A stretch of 39,720 bases of DNA, from the sequence record PZ618370.1, one strand, 5' to 3'. The notes beneath the pieces are model-generated. The model was given only the letters and a program-made list of their open reading frames with translations. It was not told where the DNA came from and did not search any database. The position numbers were made by a program, and so were the translations under genes. Positions 1 through 39,720 of this stretch are shown piece after piece. The DNA is from a phage. Each line of letters starts with the position of its first letter. The first letter of the stretch is position 1.

Positions 1-211
1 ATCGGATGACGACCAGTGAACCAATCAGTAGGTAGACCATAGGTTAGCCTGAATGGTGTTACCTAAAGTCCTTGACTACAGTAGCTAAGGTCAGTAGAGT
101 GAGTCTTTATCCACGTACTGACCTTAGCTACTGTAGTCAAGGACTTTAGGTAACACCATTCAGGCTAACCTATGGTCTACCTACTGATTGGTTCACTGGT
201 CGTCATCCGAT
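1..211. repeat. terminal foldback palindrome: arms 1-96 and 116-211 are exact reverse complements, 19-nt spacer 97-115
   Basis: Reverse complement of 1-96 written out by hand equals 116-211 base for base. Hairpin-end read-through or assembly artefact are both possible. Confidence 0.9.
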
Positions 212-242
212 GGTCTCAGACCTACGGTCCTTGACCTACAGT
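116..242 (+). repeat. left copy of direct terminal repeat (at least 127 bp)
   Basis: Identical to 39594-39720 at the window end; T7-like genomes carry direct terminal repeats. Confidence 0.8.
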
Positions 243-484
243 AGCTGAGACCTTAAGGTAGGGACGATGAGTTTTGGACCAAAAGTTTGAGACCACATCT
301 CACAGTTCAAGAACCTCAAGTCTCCCCATAGGCCTACTTCAGTCCAGACCAAAGGCCATACCCCAGTCTATCATAAGGTTGGACAGATGGTCAATACTTC
401 AGGTCAACGATAGGTCATGACGATAGGTGGTGGTGGAGACGATAGGTAGGGACTATGGGTCTGTCTCTGAGTCTCTATCTGTAT

Positions 485-613
485 AACCATAAGTCACTAA
501 CCATAGGTCCTACAACCATAGGTCCTACAACCATAGGTCCTACAACCATAGGTCCTACAACCTACAGTCTCAACCATAAGACACCAACACCTACAGTCAT
601 AGACCTACAGTTA
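485..613 (+). repeat. tandem array of 15-bp unit AACCATAGGTCCTAC (4 perfect copies 499-558, degenerate copies on both sides)
   Basis: Direct reading of sequence; sits in the non-coding left leader, analogous to the repeated motifs in the T7 left end. Confidence 0.85.
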
Positions 614-722
614 ATAGACACACAGCTATAGACTTAAGGACAAAGACATGATAGTCAAAGACTATATCCTCTTACACCATGAGGCCGACGATAGCTTAAT
701 CAATATTATTTCAAATTACCTA

Positions 723-752
723 TTGACTATAGGTCTAGACTATGGCCTAATA
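723..752 (+). promoter_or_regulatory. host sigma70-type early promoter (T7 A1-like)
   Basis: -35 TTGACT at 723-728, about 17-nt spacer, -10-like CCTAAT/CTAATA around 746-752; flanking sequence resembles the T7 A1 promoter context. Confidence 0.45.
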
Positions 753-863
753 GCTTCCGTCAACACGACACGGCAACAACCGGATAGTGAAGACGCCGGG
801 TCATCCCGGTTAAGTAGACAGCCTGATAAGTCATACGAACAACAGGCAGATGACAGAAAGTAG

Positions 864-893
864 TTGACAAGATGTACCGACTTAAAGTAGTAT
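864..893 (+). promoter_or_regulatory. host sigma70-type early promoter (T7 A2/A3-like)
   Basis: -35 TTGACA at 864-869, 18-nt spacer, -10 TAGTAT at 888-893, followed by GTACCACAT as in T7 A3. Confidence 0.5.
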
Positions 894-1004
894 GTACCAC
901 ATCGAAACAACAGTGATGACCAACACTGAAATGGTCTACCTGAAGTCCTCTGACTGAAGGGAATGCTCTTTAACAATCTGGATAACTCTTAATGTGCGCC
1001 GATA

Positions 1005-1100
1005 GCGACTAACTACAGGGTCTTTGAGTCTACCGCGAGACGGGCTTGACTTGAGCGACTGAAGGCCCTGACTGATAGTCACTACTAACTAACTAACTAA
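1005..1100 (+). promoter_or_regulatory. putative RNase III-type processing element upstream of gene 0.3, ending in the three-frame stop TAACTAACTAACTAA
   Basis: Shares ACTACAGG(G)TC(C)TTTGA and GACTGAAGG(C/G)CCTGACTGAT(A/T)GTCAC blocks with the element at 1936-1985; position matches T7 R0.3. Confidence 0.3.
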
Positions 1101-1112
1101 AGGATACACATC

Positions 1113-1565
1113 ATGATTTACACTAACGAACCAGCCAACGTCTTCTATGTGCTCGTGTCTGCCGCTCGTGCTGAACATAGCGATACGCAAAACATGGTAC
1201 GCCAGTTAGACCTTAAGGCGCTGCTGCAAGCCGAACCTGAATACTACGGCGTACTTGAGTGTACGGGTCTTGAGGGATGCTACCGCGAAGAGGGTCAGGA
1301 CGCTGTAAGCACTGAGCGGACCTACCGTGTGCGCTGTGAGAAGCGCGCTCAGGCAATCAACGTGGCTCGTCTGGCCTGTAACGACTTTGAGCAAGACTGC
1401 GTGATGGTCTACAAGTCTCAGACTCACACGGCTGGACTGATGTTCTGCAAGGGGCAGGACGGCTACAAGACTACACGTCTGAACGGGACATTCCAGCAGG
1501 TCGATGCGCCTAAAGGTGAATGCTACACGAAAGATGCTGAAGGTCGCTTCTGGGAGGTGGTGTAA
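1113..1565 (+). CDS. 0.3: S-adenosyl-L-methionine hydrolase/lyase, T3 gene 0.3-type anti-restriction protein
   Basis: 150-aa ORF, first gene after the leader; aligns along its length with T3 SAMase as recalled (PANVFYVLVSA, GCYRE, RVRC, AQA.NVARLACN, QDCV.VYKSQTHTAGL). Confidence 0.8.
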   Translation: MIYTNEPANVFYVLVSAARAEHSDTQNMVRQLDLKALLQAEPEYYGVLECTGLEGCYREEGQDAVSTERTYRVRCEKRAQAINVARLACNDFEQDCVMVYKSQTHTAGLMFCKGQDGYKTTRLNGTFQQVDAPKGECYTKDAEGRFWEVV

Positions 1566-1792
1566 TGTCTAAGGTCAAAGACGTAGTGTCCTCTCGCACT
1601 CACAAGCTGGCTGAGAGCTGGCTTAGTGTCAGAATTGAGACGGATGTAGATAATTGCAAGTGGGTGACGATAGTCTCTCACATCCACCTAAATCAGGAGA
1701 CTCTCCTGCCGCACTGTTACAGCCATGAGTTCACAGACTCTGAGATACTGCGTGACAGTGACTTCCTGAAATACTATGCGAGGTTCCGCTAA
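1565..1792 (+). CDS. hypothetical early protein (75 aa)
   Basis: ORF with SD GGGAGG at 1552-1557; start overlaps the stop of 0.3 (TAATG); no recognisable motif. Confidence 0.5.
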   Translation: MSKVKDVVSSRTHKLAESWLSVRIETDVDNCKWVTIVSHIHLNQETLLPHCYSHEFTDSEILRDSDFLKYYARFR

Positions 1793-1793
1793 T

Positions 1794-1919
1794 ATGTACA
1801 CGATAAGCTATAGCAGCGAGCAGGCGTTCTACGATGGTCTCGTGGAGCTGATGAAGCGCGGGGCCTGCTACACGGCTAACCACCATGCGCTGACCATAAC
1901 GCTGACAGGTGGATACTAA
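1794..1919 (+). CDS. hypothetical small early protein (41 aa)
   Basis: ATG 2 nt after the preceding stop, fills the gap before the 0.7 leader; no SD; hand-translated MYTISYSSEQAFYDGLVELMKRGACYTANHHALTITLTGGY. Confidence 0.3.
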   Translation: MYTISYSSEQAFYDGLVELMKRGACYTANHHALTITLTGGY

Positions 1920-1935
1920 TAGGTTTACGAGTGCC

Positions 1936-1985
1936 AGACTACAGGTCCTTTGACTGAAGGGCCTGACTGATTGTCACTTAACCAC
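1936..1985 (+). promoter_or_regulatory. putative RNase III-type processing element upstream of gene 0.7
   Basis: Second copy of the conserved blocks seen at 1005-1085; position matches T7 R0.5. Confidence 0.3.
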
Positions 1986-2004
1986 ATGAGAAGGAAACAA
2001 CCGT

Positions 2005-2739
2005 ATGAACGCACACGATAAAGTAATCATGAACAACCTTATGTCTCAGCTTCACGCTATCATCTGCGAGGAGTGCTACAAGATTGAAGCCTCTTGCGCT
2101 GGCATAGCAGGTCAGCCACGCTGGAGAGCCTTTGAGATACTGGCACGGGAACATGGTTACAAGCTGTTAGGCTTAGGGCATTTCGCTGCCGCCTTTGAGC
2201 ATGAGGACCTTCCGGGATATGCAATCAAGGTGGGCTTTAAGAAGGACGACTCAGGCGCTGCATATGCGGCATTCTGCCGAGAGAATGAGGGAATGGCTGG
2301 ACTTCCAGTCATCCATCTTGTCAAGCGATTTAGCAGGGCGTACATGGTGGCTATGGATAAGTACCGCTCACTGGATGAAATTGGCGGGGACTACTGCCGG
2401 GACGGTGAGACCTATGAACAGCGAGTCTTAAACGTGTCGTGGCGTGTAGTAAACGCGGTGATAGACCACTGCGAGATGCCGTCAACCGCGCTGTATTGGT
2501 GGCTGGATAGTGCGGCCCGCTCTGAGTTCGCTTACTTAGAGGCCCAGTACATTAAAGACCTTGCGCAGACTGCACGTAAGATTCATACGTTCTTCTACGG
2601 TCTGGCATCGTTCGACACGCACCGGGCTAACGTGATGGTAGATAACAGCGGGCGCTTGATAATCACTGACCCAGTGTCTTGGGCTCAGGCAGACCATCAA
2701 GACGAGTTGCAAGGCATACTCAACACAATAGCTGAGTGA
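2005..2739 (+). CDS. 0.7: serine/threonine protein kinase (T7 gp0.7 kinase domain only, 244 aa)
   Basis: KVGFKKDDSGAAY, catalytic-loop-like FDTHRANVMV and ITDPVS match T7 gp0.7 as recalled; about 115 aa shorter than T7 gp0.7, so the C-terminal host-shutoff domain appears absent. Confidence 0.8.
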   Translation: MNAHDKVIMNNLMSQLHAIICEECYKIEASCAGIAGQPRWRAFEILAREHGYKLLGLGHFAAAFEHEDLPGYAIKVGFKKDDSGAAYAAFCRENEGMAGLPVIHLVKRFSRAYMVAMDKYRSLDEIGGDYCRDGETYEQRVLNVSWRVVNAVIDHCEMPSTALYWWLDSAARSEFAYLEAQYIKDLAQTARKIHTFFYGLASFDTHRANVMVDNSGRLIITDPVSWAQADHQDELQGILNTIAE

Positions 2740-2805
2740 TAGACGAGAGGCCACTACATCTAGTGGTCTCAAAGATTATTTCTCACAACATATAGGAGCG
2801 TCGCC

Positions 2806-2967
2806 ATGAAAGCATTGTTAACTTACATCACAATCATCGCACTCTGGGTTACTGCTGTGGCTACCGATGGCAATGCTGGTCACTGGGGCTGGCTGGCGGT
2901 CGACATCATTATGTCGCCTGTAGGAGTGGTGCGCGGCCTGCTGATTCTCTTCGGGCTTGCGGGATGA
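2806..2967 (+). CDS. hypothetical small membrane protein (53 aa, two hydrophobic segments)
   Basis: ATG at 2806 with SD AGGAG 2795-2799; hand-translated MKALLTYITIIALWVTAVATDG...LLILFGLAG; below the 60-aa cutoff of the ORF track. Confidence 0.4.
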   Translation: MKALLTYITIIALWVTAVATDGNAGHWGWLAVDIIMSPVGVVRGLLILFGLAG

Positions 2968-3164
2968 TTATGGGCTGGGCACTTCTGGTCATCGGCTACG
3001 GGTTAATACTCGCAGTCCTCACGAAAGACATCGTGAAAGCACGTAAAGTCTACCGCTTCCAGTATGTATCGCTGGGGCGCTGGACTGTACGTCAACCTAA
3101 CGGACGATTCATGCGCAACCTCGCGAACGTCTGGGATATAGCAACTCTTGGGAGCAAACTGTAA
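2964..3164 (+). CDS. hypothetical small membrane protein (66 aa, N-terminal TM helix)
   Basis: ORF start overlaps the preceding stop (ATGA), end overlaps the next start; hydrophobic N-terminus GWALLVIGYGLILAVL. Confidence 0.4.
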   Translation: MIMGWALLVIGYGLILAVLTKDIVKARKVYRFQYVSLGRWTVRQPNGRFMRNLANVWDIATLGSKL

Positions 3165-3490
3165 TGAACAAGGCATACGGGATTAATCTGGTACACTCTA
3201 TGGACGCAGACCTTAATCTGCTTTCAGCACTGGCTACGGGCTACCGTCACGGGACCTCAAGTCACACCATTCGTCAACAGCAGGAGCGCGACCGGGTGCT
3301 ACAAGTAAGACTCCGGGCTGAGGGCCATAAGTCCGAGCTGATGTGTCTGGCGTATGGTGGACGACCAATCACCGACGATGGTAAACTTCTGGTCTCAGGC
3401 TGGAAGGCGATAGACCAACGGTCAACCATCAAGCACACGACTCGCGGTGACTTCAGTCATCTTCACGCTAACCCTCTGATATGCAAGTAA
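3164..3490 (+). CDS. hypothetical early protein (108 aa)
   Basis: ORF with SD GGAG; no recognisable motif; no T7 counterpart between 0.7 and gene 1. Confidence 0.5.
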   Translation: MNKAYGINLVHSMDADLNLLSALATGYRHGTSSHTIRQQQERDRVLQVRLRAEGHKSELMCLAYGGRPITDDGKLLVSGWKAIDQRSTIKHTTRGDFSHLHANPLICK

Positions 3491-3495
3491 TTCTG

Positions 3496-3518
3496 ACTTA
3501 ACTATCACTATAGGACTC
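3496..3518 (+). promoter_or_regulatory. phage RNAP promoter (ACTTAACTATCACTATA-GGACT), upstream of the RNAP gene
   Basis: 15/17 match to the promoter family consensus; +1 G at 3513; initiating GGA rather than GGGA. Confidence 0.6.
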
Positions 3519-3587
3519 AAGGTCTAAGACTCCAAGTGAAAGACCAAAGAGACTTTAAGTGAAAGACTAATAACAAGGACTTTAAGT
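3519..3587 (+). promoter_or_regulatory. repeat-rich leader of gene 1 (AAGTGAAAGAC x2, GACTTTAAGT x2); possible RNase III/R1-like site
   Basis: Direct repeats at 3534-3544/3557-3567 and 3551-3560/3578-3587; begins with GACTCAAGGTC shared with the RNase III-like family. Confidence 0.3.
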
Positions 3588-6269
3588 ATGAGCGTCATCT
3601 CTATTGACAAACACGACTTCTCTGACGTGTCGAATGCCATTGAGCCATTTAACCTGCTGGCTGACCACTACGGGCAAGACCTTGCAGTCAAGCAGCTTCA
3701 GCTTGAGCATGAGGCATACACTGAAGGCGAGCGACGTTTCATCAAGAACCTTGAGCGCCAGACTGAGCGCGGGGAACTGGCAGACAATCAGGTCGCCAAG
3801 CCTTTGATGCAGACTCTGGTCCCTAAGATTGCGCAAGCCGTCAAGGAGTGGCACGAAGGAAAAGACGGGAAGCTGTCAACCTCTCGCCCAAGCGTAGCGT
3901 TTACCATGCTGAGCACTGATGAGAAGGCTGTCAAAGACCGCTCTCTGCTCATCTCCTGTGGGTCTGCTGCGGTTATCATACTGAAGGTCATCCTCTCCAA
4001 GCTGGTCAAGCCTGAAGGGATACCGATTACACCGATGGCCTCAGCGATAGGCCGCACACTTGAAGATGAAATCCGCTTCGGTCGCATTCGTGACAAGGAG
4101 CGGGAGCACTTCAAGAAGGCGATAGCTGAGAACCTGAACAAGCGAGCCGGGGCATCCTACAAGAAAGCCTACATGCAAGCGGTTGAAACCTCCATGCTGG
4201 AGCAGGGTCAACTGGAAGATGCGTGGGGAAATTGGAGTCCTACCGAGGCGGTACACGTTGGCATCAAGATGCTTGAGATTGTCATCCAGTCTACACAACT
4301 TGTCGAGCTTAAGCGTTATGGTGCTGGCAATGCATCGGCTGACGTTGAGATGGTCCACCTGTCAGACTTCTGGGTAAAGAAGATGGCACAACGTGGATTC
4401 AGCCTCGCGGGTATCGCGCCAGTATATCAACCTTGCGTAGTACCACCTAAGCCGTGGACTGGTGTCGTGGGTGGTGGGTATTGGGCCAAAGGTCGCAGAC
4501 CGTTGCCGCTGATTCGATTAGGGTCTAAGTCTGCGGTGGCACGTTACGAAGACGTGTACATGCCTGAAGTCTACGACGCTGTGAACATCATTCAGAATAC
4601 ACCTTGGAAAGTGAACAAGAAGGTTCTGGACGTGGTGAACATGGTCGAGAAGCTGAACAACACACCTATTAAAGACATCCCGCAAATGGAACCACTGAAG
4701 CCTGAGGACTATGCAGGTGAGACTGAAGAGGAACTCAAGGCATGGAAGAAAGCTGCTGCTGGTATCTATCGTCGCGAGAAGGCCCGAAAGTCACGCAGAT
4801 TGTCACTGAGCTTTATCGTTAACCAAGCGAACAAGTTTTCTCAGTTTAAGGCCATCTGGTTTCCGTACAACATGGATTGGCGAGGTCGCGTCTACGCTGT
4901 ACCGATGTTCAACCCTCAGGGTAACGACATGCAAAAAGGCCTCCTGACTCTTGCGGTCGGCAAGCCTATTGGTTCCGATGGCTTCAAATGGCTGAAGGTA
5001 CACGGTGCAAACTGTGCGGGTGTAGATAAAGTAACCTTCGAGGAGCGCATTAAGTGGGTGGAAGACAACCATGACAACATCATGGCTACCGCTAAAGCAC
5101 CGATGGATAGCATTGAGTGGTGGGGCAAGTTAGGCTCCCCGTTCTGCTTCCTTGCGTTCTGCTTCGAGTATGCTGGCGTAATGCATCACGGATTGTCTTA
5201 CTCATGCTCGCTGCCGATAGCGTTCGATGGGTCATGCTCTGGGATTCAGCACTTCAGCGCGATGCTTCGTGACCACATCGGTGGACATGCAGTAAACCTG
5301 ACGCCTTCCGGTAAGGTCCAAGACATCTACCGCATCGTGTCTGACCGCATTGAGGAGGAACTTAAAGTCCTGCTGGTTAACGGTACGGACAACGAGATGG
5401 TGACTCAAGAGGACAAGAAAACAGGTGAGATTACCGAGCGTCTTAAGCTGGGGACACGAGAGCTTGCGCGCCAGTGGCTTACCTATGGTATGTCACGAGA
5501 GGTCACTAAGCGTTCGGTCATGACTCTGGCATACGGGTCGAAAGAGTATGGATTCGCAGACCAAGTGTACGAGGATATCGTGATGCCAGCGATTGACTCA
5601 GGGTCTGGCGCTATGTTCACCGAGCCAAGCCAAGCATCTCGCTTCATGGCTAAGATGATTTGGGAAGCTGTTAGTGTGACCGTAGTTGCTGCGGTTGATG
5701 CGATGAAGTGGCTTCAAGGTGCTGCCAAGCTGCTGGCTGCTGAAGTGAGTGACAAGAACACAGGCGAAATCCTGAAGCCGTGCCTTCCTGTACATTGGGT
5801 CACACCCGATGGTTTCCCGGTCTGGCAGGAATACCGAAAGAAAGATACCACTCGTCTGAACCTGATGTTCTTAGGGTCATTCAACCTTCAGCCTACCGTC
5901 AACAGAGGCACGAAGAAAGAGTTGGACAAGCACAAGCAGGAGTCAGGCATTAGCCCGAACTTCGTCCACTCACAAGATGGTAGCCACCTCCGCAAGACTG
6001 TAGTCCACACGCACCGCAAGTATGGCGTGATGTCCTTCGCAGTGATTCACGATAGCTTCGGGACCATCCCGGCTGACGCTGAGTATCTGTTCCGTGGCGT
6101 CCGTGAGACGATGGTAGAGACCTACCGCGACAACGATGTGCTGCTTGACTTCTACGAGCAGTTTGAATACCAGCTTCACGAGAGCCAGCGCGACAAGTTG
6201 CCTGAGCTTCCGAAGAAAGGTAAACTGAATATCGAAGACATCTTGTCTTCAGACTTTGCATTTGCTTAA
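3588..6269 (+). CDS. 1: single-subunit DNA-directed RNA polymerase (T7 gp1 family, 893 aa)
   Basis: Full-length collinear similarity to T7 RNAP as recalled (SREVTKRSVMTLAYGSKE, HWVTPDGFPVWQEY, NFVHSQDGSHLRKTVV, IHDSFGTIPADA, C-terminal FAFA). Confidence 0.97.
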   Translation: MSVISIDKHDFSDVSNAIEPFNLLADHYGQDLAVKQLQLEHEAYTEGERRFIKNLERQTERGELADNQVAKPLMQTLVPKIAQAVKEWHEGKDGKLSTSRPSVAFTMLSTDEKAVKDRSLLISCGSAAVIILKVILSKLVKPEGIPITPMASAIGRTLEDEIRFGRIRDKEREHFKKAIAENLNKRAGASYKKAYMQAVETSMLEQGQLEDAWGNWSPTEAVHVGIKMLEIVIQSTQLVELKRYGAGNASADVEMVHLSDFWVKKMAQRGFSLAGIAPVYQPCVVPPKPWTGVVGGGYWAKGRRPLPLIRLGSKSAVARYEDVYMPEVYDAVNIIQNTPWKVNKKVLDVVNMVEKLNNTPIKDIPQMEPLKPEDYAGETEEELKAWKKAAAGIYRREKARKSRRLSLSFIVNQANKFSQFKAIWFPYNMDWRGRVYAVPMFNPQGNDMQKGLLTLAVGKPIGSDGFKWLKVHGANCAGVDKVTFEERIKWVEDNHDNIMATAKAPMDSIEWWGKLGSPFCFLAFCFEYAGVMHHGLSYSCSLPIAFDGSCSGIQHFSAMLRDHIGGHAVNLTPSGKVQDIYRIVSDRIEEELKVLLVNGTDNEMVTQEDKKTGEITERLKLGTRELARQWLTYGMSREVTKRSVMTLAYGSKEYGFADQVYEDIVMPAIDSGSGAMFTEPSQASRFMAKMIWEAVSVTVVAAVDAMKWLQGAAKLLAAEVSDKNTGEILKPCLPVHWVTPDGFPVWQEYRKKDTTRLNLMFLGSFNLQPTVNRGTKKELDKHKQESGISPNFVHSQDGSHLRKTVVHTHRKYGVMSFAVIHDSFGTIPADAEYLFRGVRETMVETYRDNDVLLDFYEQFEYQLHESQRDKLPELPKKGKLNIEDILSSDFAFA

Positions 6270-6281
6270 CAGGAGATAGTT

Positions 6282-6482
6282 ATGAAATTTGCACACAAGC
6301 AGACTGGCGTTAATGGTGGGACTCAAATCGTGACCGTAACAGAACACAACGGGAAGGGTCTGGTGAAGACCACGGTCATCCCCACCGAGATGTCAAAGCA
6401 GCTTAACGTCCCGTTCAAGTGGCTGGTTAAGCAGGTTGAGCAGACACACGAGCAAGCTCTTAAAGAGGCGGCAACCAAATGA
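6282..6482 (+). CDS. hypothetical protein (66 aa)
   Basis: ORF with SD AGGAG; lies between gene 1 and the phi1.1 promoter where T7 has no gene (T3-like phages carry extra genes here). Confidence 0.5.
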   Translation: MKFAHKQTGVNGGTQIVTVTEHNGKGLVKTTVIPTEMSKQLNVPFKWLVKQVEQTHEQALKEAATK

Positions 6483-6556
6483 CAGACCTACAGTTACTGG
6501 CCCTGTGGCTGGGAGCACTAGCAGTATTCACTCTAATCCAACGCAGAAGAGGTTAA
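6479..6556 (+). CDS. possible 25-aa hydrophobic peptide
   Basis: ATG overlaps the preceding stop (ATGA); hand-translated MTDLQLLALWLGALAVFTLIQRRRG; very short, speculative. Confidence 0.2.
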   Translation: MTDLQLLALWLGALAVFTLIQRRRG

Positions 6557-6560
6557 CCCT

Positions 6561-7040
6561 ATGTTTGGTAAGTCAAAACTCAAAGCACAAATCAAAGAGT
6601 TGAGCATGAAGGCGGCATACTTGGAGCGAGTAGTAATAGTCATGGATAAGGACAACGAGAGGCTGAAGGTTAAACTTGCTGAATCAGAGCGTAAGCGCCT
6701 AACACCACCAGCGGCTGTATTTAGCAAGCGTATGGTAGGCATCAAGTTCAAGGCACTGTTCAACGGGATGTACCAACCGACTGAGTTCAAGACTGGACCG
6801 GGTAACTGCGGTAAGAACGTTAAGCACTTCACAACATCGAAGACTGAGCGCACTATTACCATTCACCAGCACCACGTACACGGGTCTCAGAAAGACTTTG
6901 AGTATCGACTGAGCGACATCGACGGTCGAATCCAGTATGACTACGAGCTGGTTAAGGTCTATGGTGAGGAGGCTGAACAGGAACGTATAAACCAAGACTA
7001 CCGCAACAGACAGCGCTTACACCCTAAACTATCACTATAG
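6561..7040 (+). CDS. hypothetical protein (159 aa, N-terminal coiled-coil-like segment, His-rich centre)
   Basis: ORF with SD GAGG; stop codon TAG lies inside the phi1.1 promoter core; no confident homology. Confidence 0.55.
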   Translation: MFGKSKLKAQIKELSMKAAYLERVVIVMDKDNERLKVKLAESERKRLTPPAAVFSKRMVGIKFKALFNGMYQPTEFKTGPGNCGKNVKHFTTSKTERTITIHQHHVHGSQKDFEYRLSDIDGRIQYDYELVKVYGEEAEQERINQDYRNRQRLHPKLSL

Positions 7041-7045
7041 GATTA
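7023..7045 (+). promoter_or_regulatory. phage RNAP promoter (phi1.1-like)
   Basis: CCTAAACTATCACTATA-GGATT; +1 G at 7040. Confidence 0.8.
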
Positions 7046-7087
7046 GACTCAAGGTCATGACTAAAGTCGTGGCCTTCATGATTAACC
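7041..7087 (+). promoter_or_regulatory. RNase III-type processing hairpin (R1.1-like)
   Basis: Conserved element TAGACTCAAGGTCAT...GTGGCCTTCATGATTA; 5' AAGGTCAT can pair with 3' GTGGCCTT (including G-U pairs); same element before genes 5 and 18.5. Confidence 0.5.
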
Positions 7088-7116
7088 CTAACGTAAACTA
7101 CTGGAGATTCAACCAT

Positions 7117-7296
7117 ATGTATCAGAACACTATCAACTTCGAGCGCATCCGTGAACGTCAGAAGACTGAAGGTTATATTCCGAAGGGACGCAAGCTGAAC
7201 AAGACCAAGCGTGGCGGTGGTGTCAAGGGAGCTTTCCGTAATGCTGAGGGTAAAGACTCTCTGGTAAACCAAGAGAAGTATTTCGTAGGAGCGTAA
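7117..7296 (+). CDS. gp1.1-like small basic protein
   Basis: GRKLNKTKR motif as in T7 gp1.1 as recalled. The track ORF starts at 7057 inside the RNase III-like hairpin; the in-frame ATG at 7117 after GGAG is more plausible. Start uncertain. Confidence 0.45.
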   Translation: MYQNTINFERIRERQKTEGYIPKGRKLNKTKRGGGVKGAFRNAEGKDSLVNQEKYFVGA

Positions 7297-9507: not shown

Positions 9508-9585
9508 GTGGTGCCGGGAGATGTACGAGAAGACTCTCAACCCGGACTACATTACGTTATACAACCAATGGAAGGAGCGCGGTTT

Positions 9586-9744
9586 GTGACTGAGGTTGAG
9601 AAGAAATACATCGTGGAGCTTGAGGGTCGAGTTCAGTCCTTCGAGGTTCCGGTGTACGCAAAGTCTCTTGAAGAGGCTACCCTGAAGTCCCAAGAGTATG
9701 AGGACGCTGGGTTTGTGGTCGGACGGATTCGTCCTGAGACCTAA
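9586..9744 (+). CDS. 2: host RNA polymerase inhibitor (T7 gp2-like)
   Basis: [14 protein letters not shown]...[10 protein letters not shown] matches T7 gp2 SFEVPIYAETLDEA...AGFEVTRVRP as recalled. The track ORF starts at GTG 9508 without SD; GTG 9586 follows a perfect AAGGAG (9572-9577). Start uncertain (ATG 9568 also possible). Confidence 0.6.
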
Positions 9745-39529: not shown

Positions 39530-39563
39530 TGCAATCATGGTAACGATTCATGAGCGGAAGACC

Positions 39564-39604
39564 TAAGGTCAGTACGTGGATAAAGACTCACTCTACTGAC
39601 CTTA
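39564..39604 (+). repeat. palindromic hairpin element at the inner boundary of the right terminal repeat (11-bp arms TAAGGTCAGTA / TACTGACCTTA, 19-nt spacer)
   Basis: Same arms as 86-126, but the spacer is the reverse complement of the left-end spacer. Confidence 0.8.
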
Positions 39605-39720
39605 GCTACTGTAGTCAAGGACTTTAGGTAACACCATTCAGGCTAACCTATGGTCTACCTACTGATTGGTTCACTGGTCGTCATCCGATGGTCTCAGACC
39701 TACGGTCCTTGACCTACAGT
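39594..39720 (+). repeat. right copy of direct terminal repeat
   Basis: Identical to 116-242; runs to the last base of the window. Confidence 0.8.

Follow-up and report, generated by a model that had tools for sequence, protein, structure and literature searches.

How does a T7-like phage use a gene 0.7 kinase of only 244 amino acids (aa), and what do the three small open reading frames (ORFs) between this kinase and gene 1 encode? The question is raised by positions 2005-3490 of a phage genome (sequence record PZ618370.1), of which the whole stretch of 39,720 nucleotides (nt) was analysed and is called the window here. T7 gp0.7 consists of a kinase domain followed by a host-shutoff (SO) domain at the C-terminal end. 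The kinase of the window belongs to a lineage that has the kinase domain only, and the three small ORFs correspond to gp0.36, gp0.37 and gp0.38 of phage K1F. We consider it quite likely that the block is a distal early (class I) region, made of an accessory SO-less kinase cassette and the K1F backbone genes 0.36-0.38, which would act by the mechanism proposed below. The identification as such (families, domain content and accessory status) is very likely. That gp0.36-0.38 form, as a functional class, dispensable host-manipulation or anti-defence accessories is probable, and any particular target that might be named for them is far less certain.

An earlier note on this DNA had reported four ORFs, and all of them were found on the + strand at the positions and lengths given: 2005-2739 (244 aa), 2806-2967 (53 aa), 2964-3164 (66 aa) and 3164-3490 (108 aa). 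The last three are called orfA, orfB and orfC. Their tight coupling was also as described, with an ATGA overlap at 2964-2967 and a TAATG overlap at 3162-3166. The ratio of nonsynonymous to synonymous substitution rates (dN/dS) was calculated by the Nei-Gojobori method against three relatives, Pectobacterium phage LET1, Salmonella phage ST29 and K1F, and dS values reached 1.4. The results showed that all four genes are under purifying selection, with dN/dS ranging from 0.08 to 0.36 (kinase, 0.08-0.17; orfA, 0.12-0.24; orfB, 0.11-0.34; orfC, 0.11-0.36). This indicates that they are translated genes and not chance ORFs. Homologues of each of the four number in the tens to hundreds.

The 244-aa protein is a gene 0.7 homologue, a kinase-domain-only Ser/Thr(/Tyr) protein kinase of the T7K family. 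It matched phrog_15752, a kinase family of 260 positions, at 5e-109 and the T7 family phrog_2828 at 1e-51, and PF27024 in a precomputed table also placed it in the T7 gp0.7/T7K kinase family. Identity to T7 and T3 gp0.7 was 34-40% and was confined to the core (34% for T7), with BLASTP E-values of 3e-33 for T7 and 7e-38 for T3. Like T7 gp0.7, it is encoded by an early gene upstream of gene 1. Among 25 full-length kinases, 48 alignment columns are invariant, and 41 of them are also present in the 244-aa kinase. The catalytic and regulatory motifs are complete: G74-x-G76, K93 in VIKVGFKK, F194-D195-x-H197-x-x-N200 and D213-P214-V215-S216, that is, the GxG loop, the lysine, FDxHxxN, DPV and the Ser after DPV of T7 gp0.7. 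In the T7 kinase, G76F is catalytically dead and S216 is autoinhibitory (PMC13645617). The invariant columns and motifs bear out the claim that the kinase domain is retained. The changed columns are R24, L28 and V36, which lie in a missing N-terminal segment, and S79A, C130A, L138Y and E236T. The N-terminal helical segment is approximately 26 residues shorter than that of T7 gp0.7.

The SO domain of T7 gp0.7 comprises residues 243-359. The last residue of the 244-aa kinase aligns at position 239 of the 359 residues of the T7 protein. A profile of the SO domain was built from 24 sequences and scanned against the six frames of the entire 39.7-kb window. No match was found (best E 2.4), and the kinase-domain profile, used as a positive control, gave 1e-59. 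This indicates that the shutoff domain is absent from the genome and has not been relocated. The suspected loss of the host-shutoff domain was thus verified, and the protein belongs to the family through its kinase domain, without the two-domain architecture of kinase and C-terminal SO.

The description of the gene as shortened has to be corrected where it suggests a single event, because the gene represents a stable lineage of kinase-only proteins, for which a separate PHROG (15752) exists. The database relatives that exceed 52% identity, which form more than 40 clusters, are all 229-244 aa long and share the tail ...ITDPVSW...AIAE. The next relatives, at 43% identity or less, are two-domain proteins of approximately 370 aa. 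The distribution of kinase lengths is bimodal, with 38 clusters at 240-259 aa versus 45 at 360-379 aa. Core identity to the nearest full-length kinase is no more than 47%, which indicates that the split between short and full-length kinases is old. A second, unrelated short lineage (P0289, P0296 and P0301; approximately 246 aa) ends directly after DPVS and is nearer to the full-length kinases than to the lineage of the window, so the SO domain was lost more than once.

Residues 1-242 of the T7 kinase are an active, hyper-promiscuous kinase (PMC13645617). The SO domain is DNA-binding, directs the kinase to nucleic-acid-binding substrates and postpones autoinhibition, and a T7 delta-SO phage yielded approximately 31% of the wild-type phosphopeptides with an earlier plateau (PMC13645617). 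The domain content of the window kinase matches that of this engineered 1-242 protein, of which it is a natural counterpart. A survey of T7K kinases reported that Autographiviridae homologues "mostly retained" the two-domain architecture (PMC13645617). JSS1_004 of Salmonella phage JSS1 is an early anti-defence kinase of the same family in a T7-like enterobacterial phage, and both of its domains are required for full anti-Dnd activity (PMC12345140). It is bifunctional (kinase and SO) and 54% similar to T7 gp0.7, whereas the window kinase consists of the first domain only. Further differences from T7 concern the genome. That of the window encodes no SO/DNA-binding domain; three extra genes intervene between the kinase and gene 1, which abut each other in T7 and T3; and the kinase is an accessory gene in its genus, present in approximately 20% of the genomes.

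The left 25 kb of the window, including the block at 2005-3490, showed 83-95% DNA identity to Kayfunavirus genomes with the same gene layout. The best DNA matches and the layout identify the window as a genome of the K1F group (Kayfunavirus, K1F-like Studiervirinae) instead of the T3 group that the earlier note had named. A T3-like S-adenosylmethionine (SAM) lyase gene is located upstream of the kinase, yet the phage stands outside the T3 group. K1F (NC_007636) encodes direct orthologues of orfA-C in the same order and with the same coupling, immediately before a phage promoter and gene 1, and EcoDS1 gp0.6 and Gp0.38 count among the orthologues. K1F differs in that it carries Ocr in place of the SAM lyase and has no kinase. 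In the gene table of Enterobacter phage B1, a SAM lyase and small ORFs are followed by a 243-aa protein kinase, by hypothetical proteins of 53, 64 and 108 aa, and then by an 893-aa RNA polymerase (PMC12785254). The three small ORFs are not new, being K1F gp0.36, gp0.37 and gp0.38, which are found in many genome papers. They had been called unannotated; relatives label all three as hypothetical proteins, and one K1F record names them gp0.36, gp0.37 and gp0.38.

The kinase lineage (tblastn, above 80% identity) was detected in approximately 46 phage records, compared with 226 for the 108-aa protein; the 66-aa family occurred in 499 phage records and the 53-aa family in 51. The small ORFs do lie in the space before gene 1, as had been stated, but K1F without a kinase still has them in the same order directly before gene 1. 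The better reading is that gp0.36-0.38 are the conserved backbone and that the kinase is an accessory insert upstream of them. A conserved 10-bp hairpin, GAGGCCACTA-CATC-TAGTGGTCTC, is located just 3' of the kinase stop codon (2747-2770, + strand; fold of -19.2 kcal/mol, z -2.3). Positions 2729-2785 cover the last kinase codons, the stop, the hairpin and the downstream AAAGATTAT; this segment is all but identical to the 3' end of gene 0.35 of K1F, an unrelated gene, and to the hairpin behind it. The stop codon, the hairpin and AAAGATTAT are also nearly identical behind the kinase in LET1 and ST29. Judged from these alignments, the hairpin region looks like a shared module junction where the cassette is exchanged. 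It was considered as a terminator and rejected, as it lacks a T-run behind it and went unflagged in the consensus scan. ST29 has a small duplication at this junction.

Natural variants of the early region were found in several relatives. In the Salmonella Typhi phages ST37, ST34 and ST35, the SAM lyase (SAMase) and the kinase are joined in frame into one protein of 309 aa (1153-2082 of the ST37 locus). The fusion originated by a deletion between GGCTACAAG (1461-1469) and GGTTACAAG (2155-2163), which are identical at 8 of 9 positions and encode 'DGYK' and 'HGYK'. It lacks the first 52 kinase residues and keeps the entire catalytic core. ST15 retains only remnants (1852-2123 of its locus), namely 50 residues from the start of the SAMase and some 40 from the end of the kinase. 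Two database proteins are chimeras that begin with the N-terminus of gp0.35: P0271 (174 aa) continues with the C-terminal half of the kinase, and P0233 (66 aa) with the C-terminal half of gp0.37. The chimeras are further evidence of microhomology-mediated deletions in the early region. Together, these deletions and fusions indicate that the block is prone to recombination and that a phage can propagate without the kinase, without gp0.36 and without the transmembrane part of gp0.37. The block tolerates insertions as well. Phage IMM-002 has a 140-aa gene between gp0.37 and gp0.38 (2236-2658 of its locus; annotated as endonuclease VII in the RefSeq copy NC_048071.1). In Kosakonia phage Kc166A, gp0.36 is present as two tandem paralogues, and a further gene, of 120 aa, separates gp0.38 from gene 1 (2031-2362 and 2856-3218 of its locus).

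OrfA (2806-2967) belongs to the K1F gp0.36 family (phrog_7319, 1e-19). It is preceded by a good Shine-Dalgarno sequence (AGGAG), contains two hydrophobic segments and is 68% identical to K1F gp0.36. The family signature DGN..GW..D...P.G.VRG, which spans the loop and the second hydrophobic segment, is present in orfA and kept in LET1, K1F and both Kc166A paralogues. In ST29, ST37 and ST15 the gp0.36 slot is occupied by an unrelated 41-aa hydrophobic peptide rich in Gly, Ala and Leu, MIPLLATFGLGLALGANVLTAGLVAMGAFLVSSFILGWGRI (3366-3491, 2168-2293 and 2202-2327 of their respective loci), and in IMM-002 the slot is empty. No PHROG match was obtained for this peptide, and its composition is reminiscent of T7 gp0.5. 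T7 gp0.5 (47 aa) resembles orfA in position and architecture only, being a small early protein with two hydrophobic segments. It belongs to another PHROG (phrog_16572) and shows no detectable sequence relationship to orfA (BLASTP E 1.5), and the assignment of orfA as T7 gp0.5 was rejected.

OrfB (2964-3164) belongs to the family of K1F gp0.37 (labelled '0.6') and T3 gp0.6 (phrog_2385). OrfB matched this PHROG at 5e-28 and T3 gp0.6 matched it at 9e-30. Most homologues are 64-65 aa long, and orfB has a second ATG at 2970 that would give 64 aa, so translation may start there. OrfB is 82% identical to the K1F protein and 33% identical to T3 gp0.6 (E 6e-7), with an isoelectric point (pI) of 11.0. 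The T3 and phiYeO3-12 gene 0.6 proteins share with orfB a length of approximately 65 aa, an early position, an N-terminal transmembrane helix and a basic tail with (R/W)(F/W)TVR-x-x-NGRF. In orfB the motif of the basic C-terminal domain is RWTVRQPNGRF, with T41, V42, R43, N46, G47, R48 and F49 invariant. By the positive-inside rule, this tail of 45 residues is predicted to face the cytoplasm. A transmembrane domain was predicted by TMHMM in gene 0.6 of the T3-like phage AP5 (PMC4283147). Besides the low identity, T3 differs in that gene 0.6 lies upstream of 0.7, whereas its place in K1F-like phages, the present one included, is downstream of the kinase slot. The family covers Kayfunavirus, T3-like, Klebsiella KP32-like, Dickeya and Pectobacterium phages (499 records, Studiervirinae).

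T7 gp0.6 has been reported as an inhibitor of MreB. The '0.6' label in the K1F and EcoDS1 records is positional, and identity of orfB with T7 gp0.6 was rejected. Both are small basic proteins of the early region that follow a protein with two hydrophobic segments, and the likeness ends with position: gp0.6A of T7 belongs to phrog_8393, the hhalign probability was 0.4%, and no BLAST hit or other detectable sequence relationship was obtained. PF26807 was likewise rejected as a domain of orfB, as it was seen in two database chimeras and belongs to their gp0.35 part.

OrfC (3164-3490) belongs to the K1F/EcoDS1 gp0.38 family (phrog_7066, 2e-44). It is preceded by the Shine-Dalgarno sequence GGGAG and encodes a basic, soluble protein (pI 9.6, net charge +5). 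A total of 145 homologues were found, and the top BFVD matches were family members, including EcoDS1 Gp0.38. The core ERD.VL..R..AEG...DGKLL...TTxGDF[S/T]HL persists in members with as little as 30-50% identity, and T92, G95, D96, F97, H99 and L100 are invariant in divergent members. The N-terminus is variable, with forms of 70, 83-86, 108 and 130-139 aa; K1F gp0.38 is a short form of 86 aa without the 22-aa N-terminal extension of orfC. The AlphaFold2 model predicts a helical bundle (H9-25, H33-52, H56-63 and H71-88) with an Arg/Gln-rich helix. The predicted local distance difference test (pLDDT) score was 70 overall and approximately 85-89 in the 40-88 core, and the invariant C-terminal tail was of low confidence. 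An exhaustive profile search of 1.84 billion representatives placed the family in 14 clusters at 50% identity, all of them small phage-like proteins. No informative relative was obtained by fold or sequence, and the fold search returned generic helical bundles only.

Hydropathy gave two hydrophobic stretches for the 53-aa protein, one N-terminal stretch for the 66-aa protein and none for the 108-aa protein, in agreement with the predicted two membrane proteins and one soluble protein. Searches of Pfam, NCBIfam, PADLOC and PDB sequences for a function of orfA, orfB or orfC gave nothing above noise. In the literature on gp0.36-0.38, T3 gp0.6 and Kayfunavirus early genes, we found genome tables and no functional study. 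The profile and structure searches that the earlier note had recommended therefore led to known families (phrog_7319, phrog_2385 and phrog_7066) and to no functional relative. It had also named a finding that would count against its view, namely that these are ordinary conserved genes with known roles. This came half true: the genes are ordinary and conserved, and no roles are known for them.

Several other explanations were weighed. A kinase 115-125 aa shorter than T7 and T3 gp0.7 might be a decaying gene, that is, a full-length gp0.7 that a nonsense mutation or deletion has recently cut short and that no longer functions. The region is indeed prone to deletion, as the remnants and fusions in ST15, ST37 and P0271 show, and sporadic truncated T3-like kinases (P0346 and P0291) exist in databases. 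Against decay stand more than 40 clusters, down to 52% identity, at 229-244 aa with the same C-terminus, and a dN/dS of 0.08-0.17 with every catalytic motif intact. Given also the old split from the full-length kinases and the absence of a downstream SO remnant in any frame, we regard decay as extremely unlikely. Even less credence is given to the idea that the small ORFs are not genes and that 2740-3587 is an untranslated regulatory leader of gene 1. The ORFs are short and without Pfam domains, and a conserved hairpin and a phage promoter lie in the region. Such a leader is contradicted by dN/dS values of 0.11-0.36 at dS up to 1.4, by motifs kept at 30-50% identity, by the Shine-Dalgarno sequences and stop/start coupling, and by the many members of the PHROG families. 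It could also be asked whether the SO function is supplied in trans, with gp0.38 giving the DNA-binding or host-transcription-shutoff activity that the kinase lacks. OrfC is basic and predicted to be helical with an Arg/Gln-rich helix, it is universal in a genus in which no kinase has SO, it is part of the same early unit, and its function is otherwise unassigned. Against this, the profile-profile comparison of the orfC family with full-length kinases reached only 0.4%, with the aligned stretch outside the SO region, the SO profile missed orfC and every other frame, and the fold search gave generic bundles. OrfC is present in approximately 180 genomes without any kinase, including K1F, which indicates that it is not a kinase partner. 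A supply in trans is very unlikely in our opinion. The related idea of a split gene, in which orfC or orfB would be the detached SO domain, was rejected on hhalign probabilities of 0.4% for orfC and 0.7% for orfB, on the lack of an SO-profile match in six frames and on the presence of orfC in kinase-less phages.

Small membrane proteins made early by a lytic phage can mediate exclusion, as Imm and Sp of T4 do. Both gp0.36 and gp0.37 are small, early and predicted to be in the inner membrane, and a small hydrophobic hairpin peptide (of the 53-56-aa type or the unrelated 41-aa type) usually occupies the slot before gp0.37. They might serve the phage itself at the membrane, instead of acting against host defence, by excluding superinfecting phages, controlling genome entry or timing lysis. 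Neither sequence nor profile comparison linked them to exclusion, holin or antiholin families, IMM-002 lacks gp0.36, and P0233 lacks both gp0.36 and the transmembrane helix of gp0.37. Moreover, phages that differ widely in receptor and host retain the gp0.37 family, and this points to a conserved target in the host, either intracellular or in the membrane. A role confined to the phage is an unlikely alternative. The accessory kinase cassette with its K1F backbone genes remains the explanation that we prefer, and several points weigh against it. The kinase activity of the 244-aa protein is suggested by motif conservation, and S79A, C130A and the shortened N-terminal segment set it apart from all 25 full-length kinases aligned. 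The topology of gp0.36 and gp0.37 is predicted from hydropathy and the positive-inside rule and not from a dedicated predictor, and the gp0.38 model has only moderate confidence. Homology, fold and literature give no functional clue for gp0.36, gp0.37 and gp0.38; a host-takeover or anti-defence role is plausible on the basis of position, early timing and dispensability. Finally, a phage promoter at 39174, near the right genome end, could add later transcription through concatemers, so that strictly early expression is not proven.

The transcription signals around the block are as follows. A sigma-70 consensus match (10/12) lies upstream at 864-893, and no consensus intrinsic terminator was found on the + strand between 900 and 3500. 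A 10-bp G+C-rich hairpin (1942-1965, + strand; fold of 1915-2010 of -24.1 kcal/mol, z -2.1) is located in the 85-nt spacer that precedes the kinase gene. A full-consensus promoter for the phage RNA polymerase lies at 3496-3518 on the + strand, approximately 75 nt upstream of gene 1 (ATG at 3588), with the core ACTATCACTATAGG at 3501-3514. Seven further exact copies of this core occur at 7028, 18298, 21119, 22118, 26666, 33942 and 39174, and a scan of the window gave 14 matches with three mismatches or fewer, compared with 2.9 expected. The promoter is found at the same place in K1F and ST29, whereas T7 and T3 annotate no phage promoter there. Its position directly before gene 1 implies positive autoregulation of gene 1 in the genus. 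Gene 1 itself (3588-6269, + strand) encodes a T7-type single-subunit RNA polymerase of 893 aa, is annotated in the same way in all relatives and delimits the block on its downstream side. A homologue of the Gp2-type inhibitor of host RNA polymerase is encoded at approximately 9508-9744 (Pfam RNA_pol_inhib, 6e-20), which indicates that this phage has a host transcription shutoff independent of the gp0.7 SO domain.

We propose that the block is probably transcribed by the RNA polymerase of the host from left-end promoters in the first minutes of infection, before gene 1. The kinase would then act as an early, freely diffusing and promiscuous enzyme that phosphorylates host proteins, defence proteins among them, in a short untargeted burst. 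By analogy with T7 delta-SO, the lack of DNA tethering would reduce the bias to nucleic-acid-binding targets and bring earlier self-shutoff, and the protein would exert no kinase-independent transcription shutoff. Inhibition of the host RNA polymerase would fall to the Gp2 homologue. The proteins gp0.36, gp0.37 and gp0.38 are translated as a coupled unit. In this scheme, gp0.36 may insert into the inner membrane as a small hairpin protein, gp0.37 may be a single-pass inner-membrane protein that offers its basic tail to a conserved host target, and gp0.38 may be a small basic helical protein of the cytosol that binds a host partner through its C-terminal motif. A bolder version can be put forward, with little confidence. 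The gp0.36-0.38 block would then hold new host-takeover or anti-defence activities, and gp0.38 in particular would be a new inhibitor of a conserved host protein, possibly offsetting the missing SO in Kayfunaviruses. Its target could be a component of transcription, RNA processing or defence. The SO-less kinase would be an untethered alternative use of the hyper-promiscuous kinase.

Other features of the left end were also recorded. Between the SAM lyase and the kinase lie genes for a 75-aa DUF7300 protein (1565-1792; Pfam 5e-19) and a 47-aa protein of phrog_33188 (1776-1919). The 47-aa protein also adjoins gp0.35 in Enterobacter phage vB_Ecl_MII_004. Bases 1-127 recur exactly, as their reverse complement, at approximately 39563-39689, and bases 116-242 equal the final 127 bases of the 39720. 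The left end thus carries an inverted copy of the terminal-repeat region, which forms a perfect palindrome of approximately 230 nt and is most likely an assembly artefact at the genome end. The Rfam scan of 1-7200 returned microRNA-like matches only (61-158), and these are spurious because of the palindrome. A perfect 15-nt tandem repeat, AACCATAGGTCCTAC, is present in 4.3 copies in the non-coding left end (499-562) and gives rise to a repetitive 'TIGPT' pseudo-ORF at 455-631.

For its genus, the block is an ordinary one. All components are already present in dozens of deposited genomes with PHROG families, and nothing in it is new in kind. Its timely aspect is the natural SO-less kinase lineage, which stands beside many kinase-less sisters and is suited for testing the proposed role of SO. 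Papers of 2025-2026 indicate that SO steers T7-type kinases to nucleic-acid-binding defence proteins (PMC13645617) and is needed for full anti-Dnd activity (PMC12345140). A comparison within Kayfunavirus can show what the kinase domain contributes by itself and what replaces SO. Of the 'known unknowns' in T7-like early regions, the three small genes belong to those that have been sampled most widely. Members of the gp0.37/T3 gp0.6 family alone occur in approximately 500 sequenced phages, including many candidates for therapy against Klebsiella, Salmonella Typhi and E. coli K1, and a functional assignment would therefore be of wide value for annotation.

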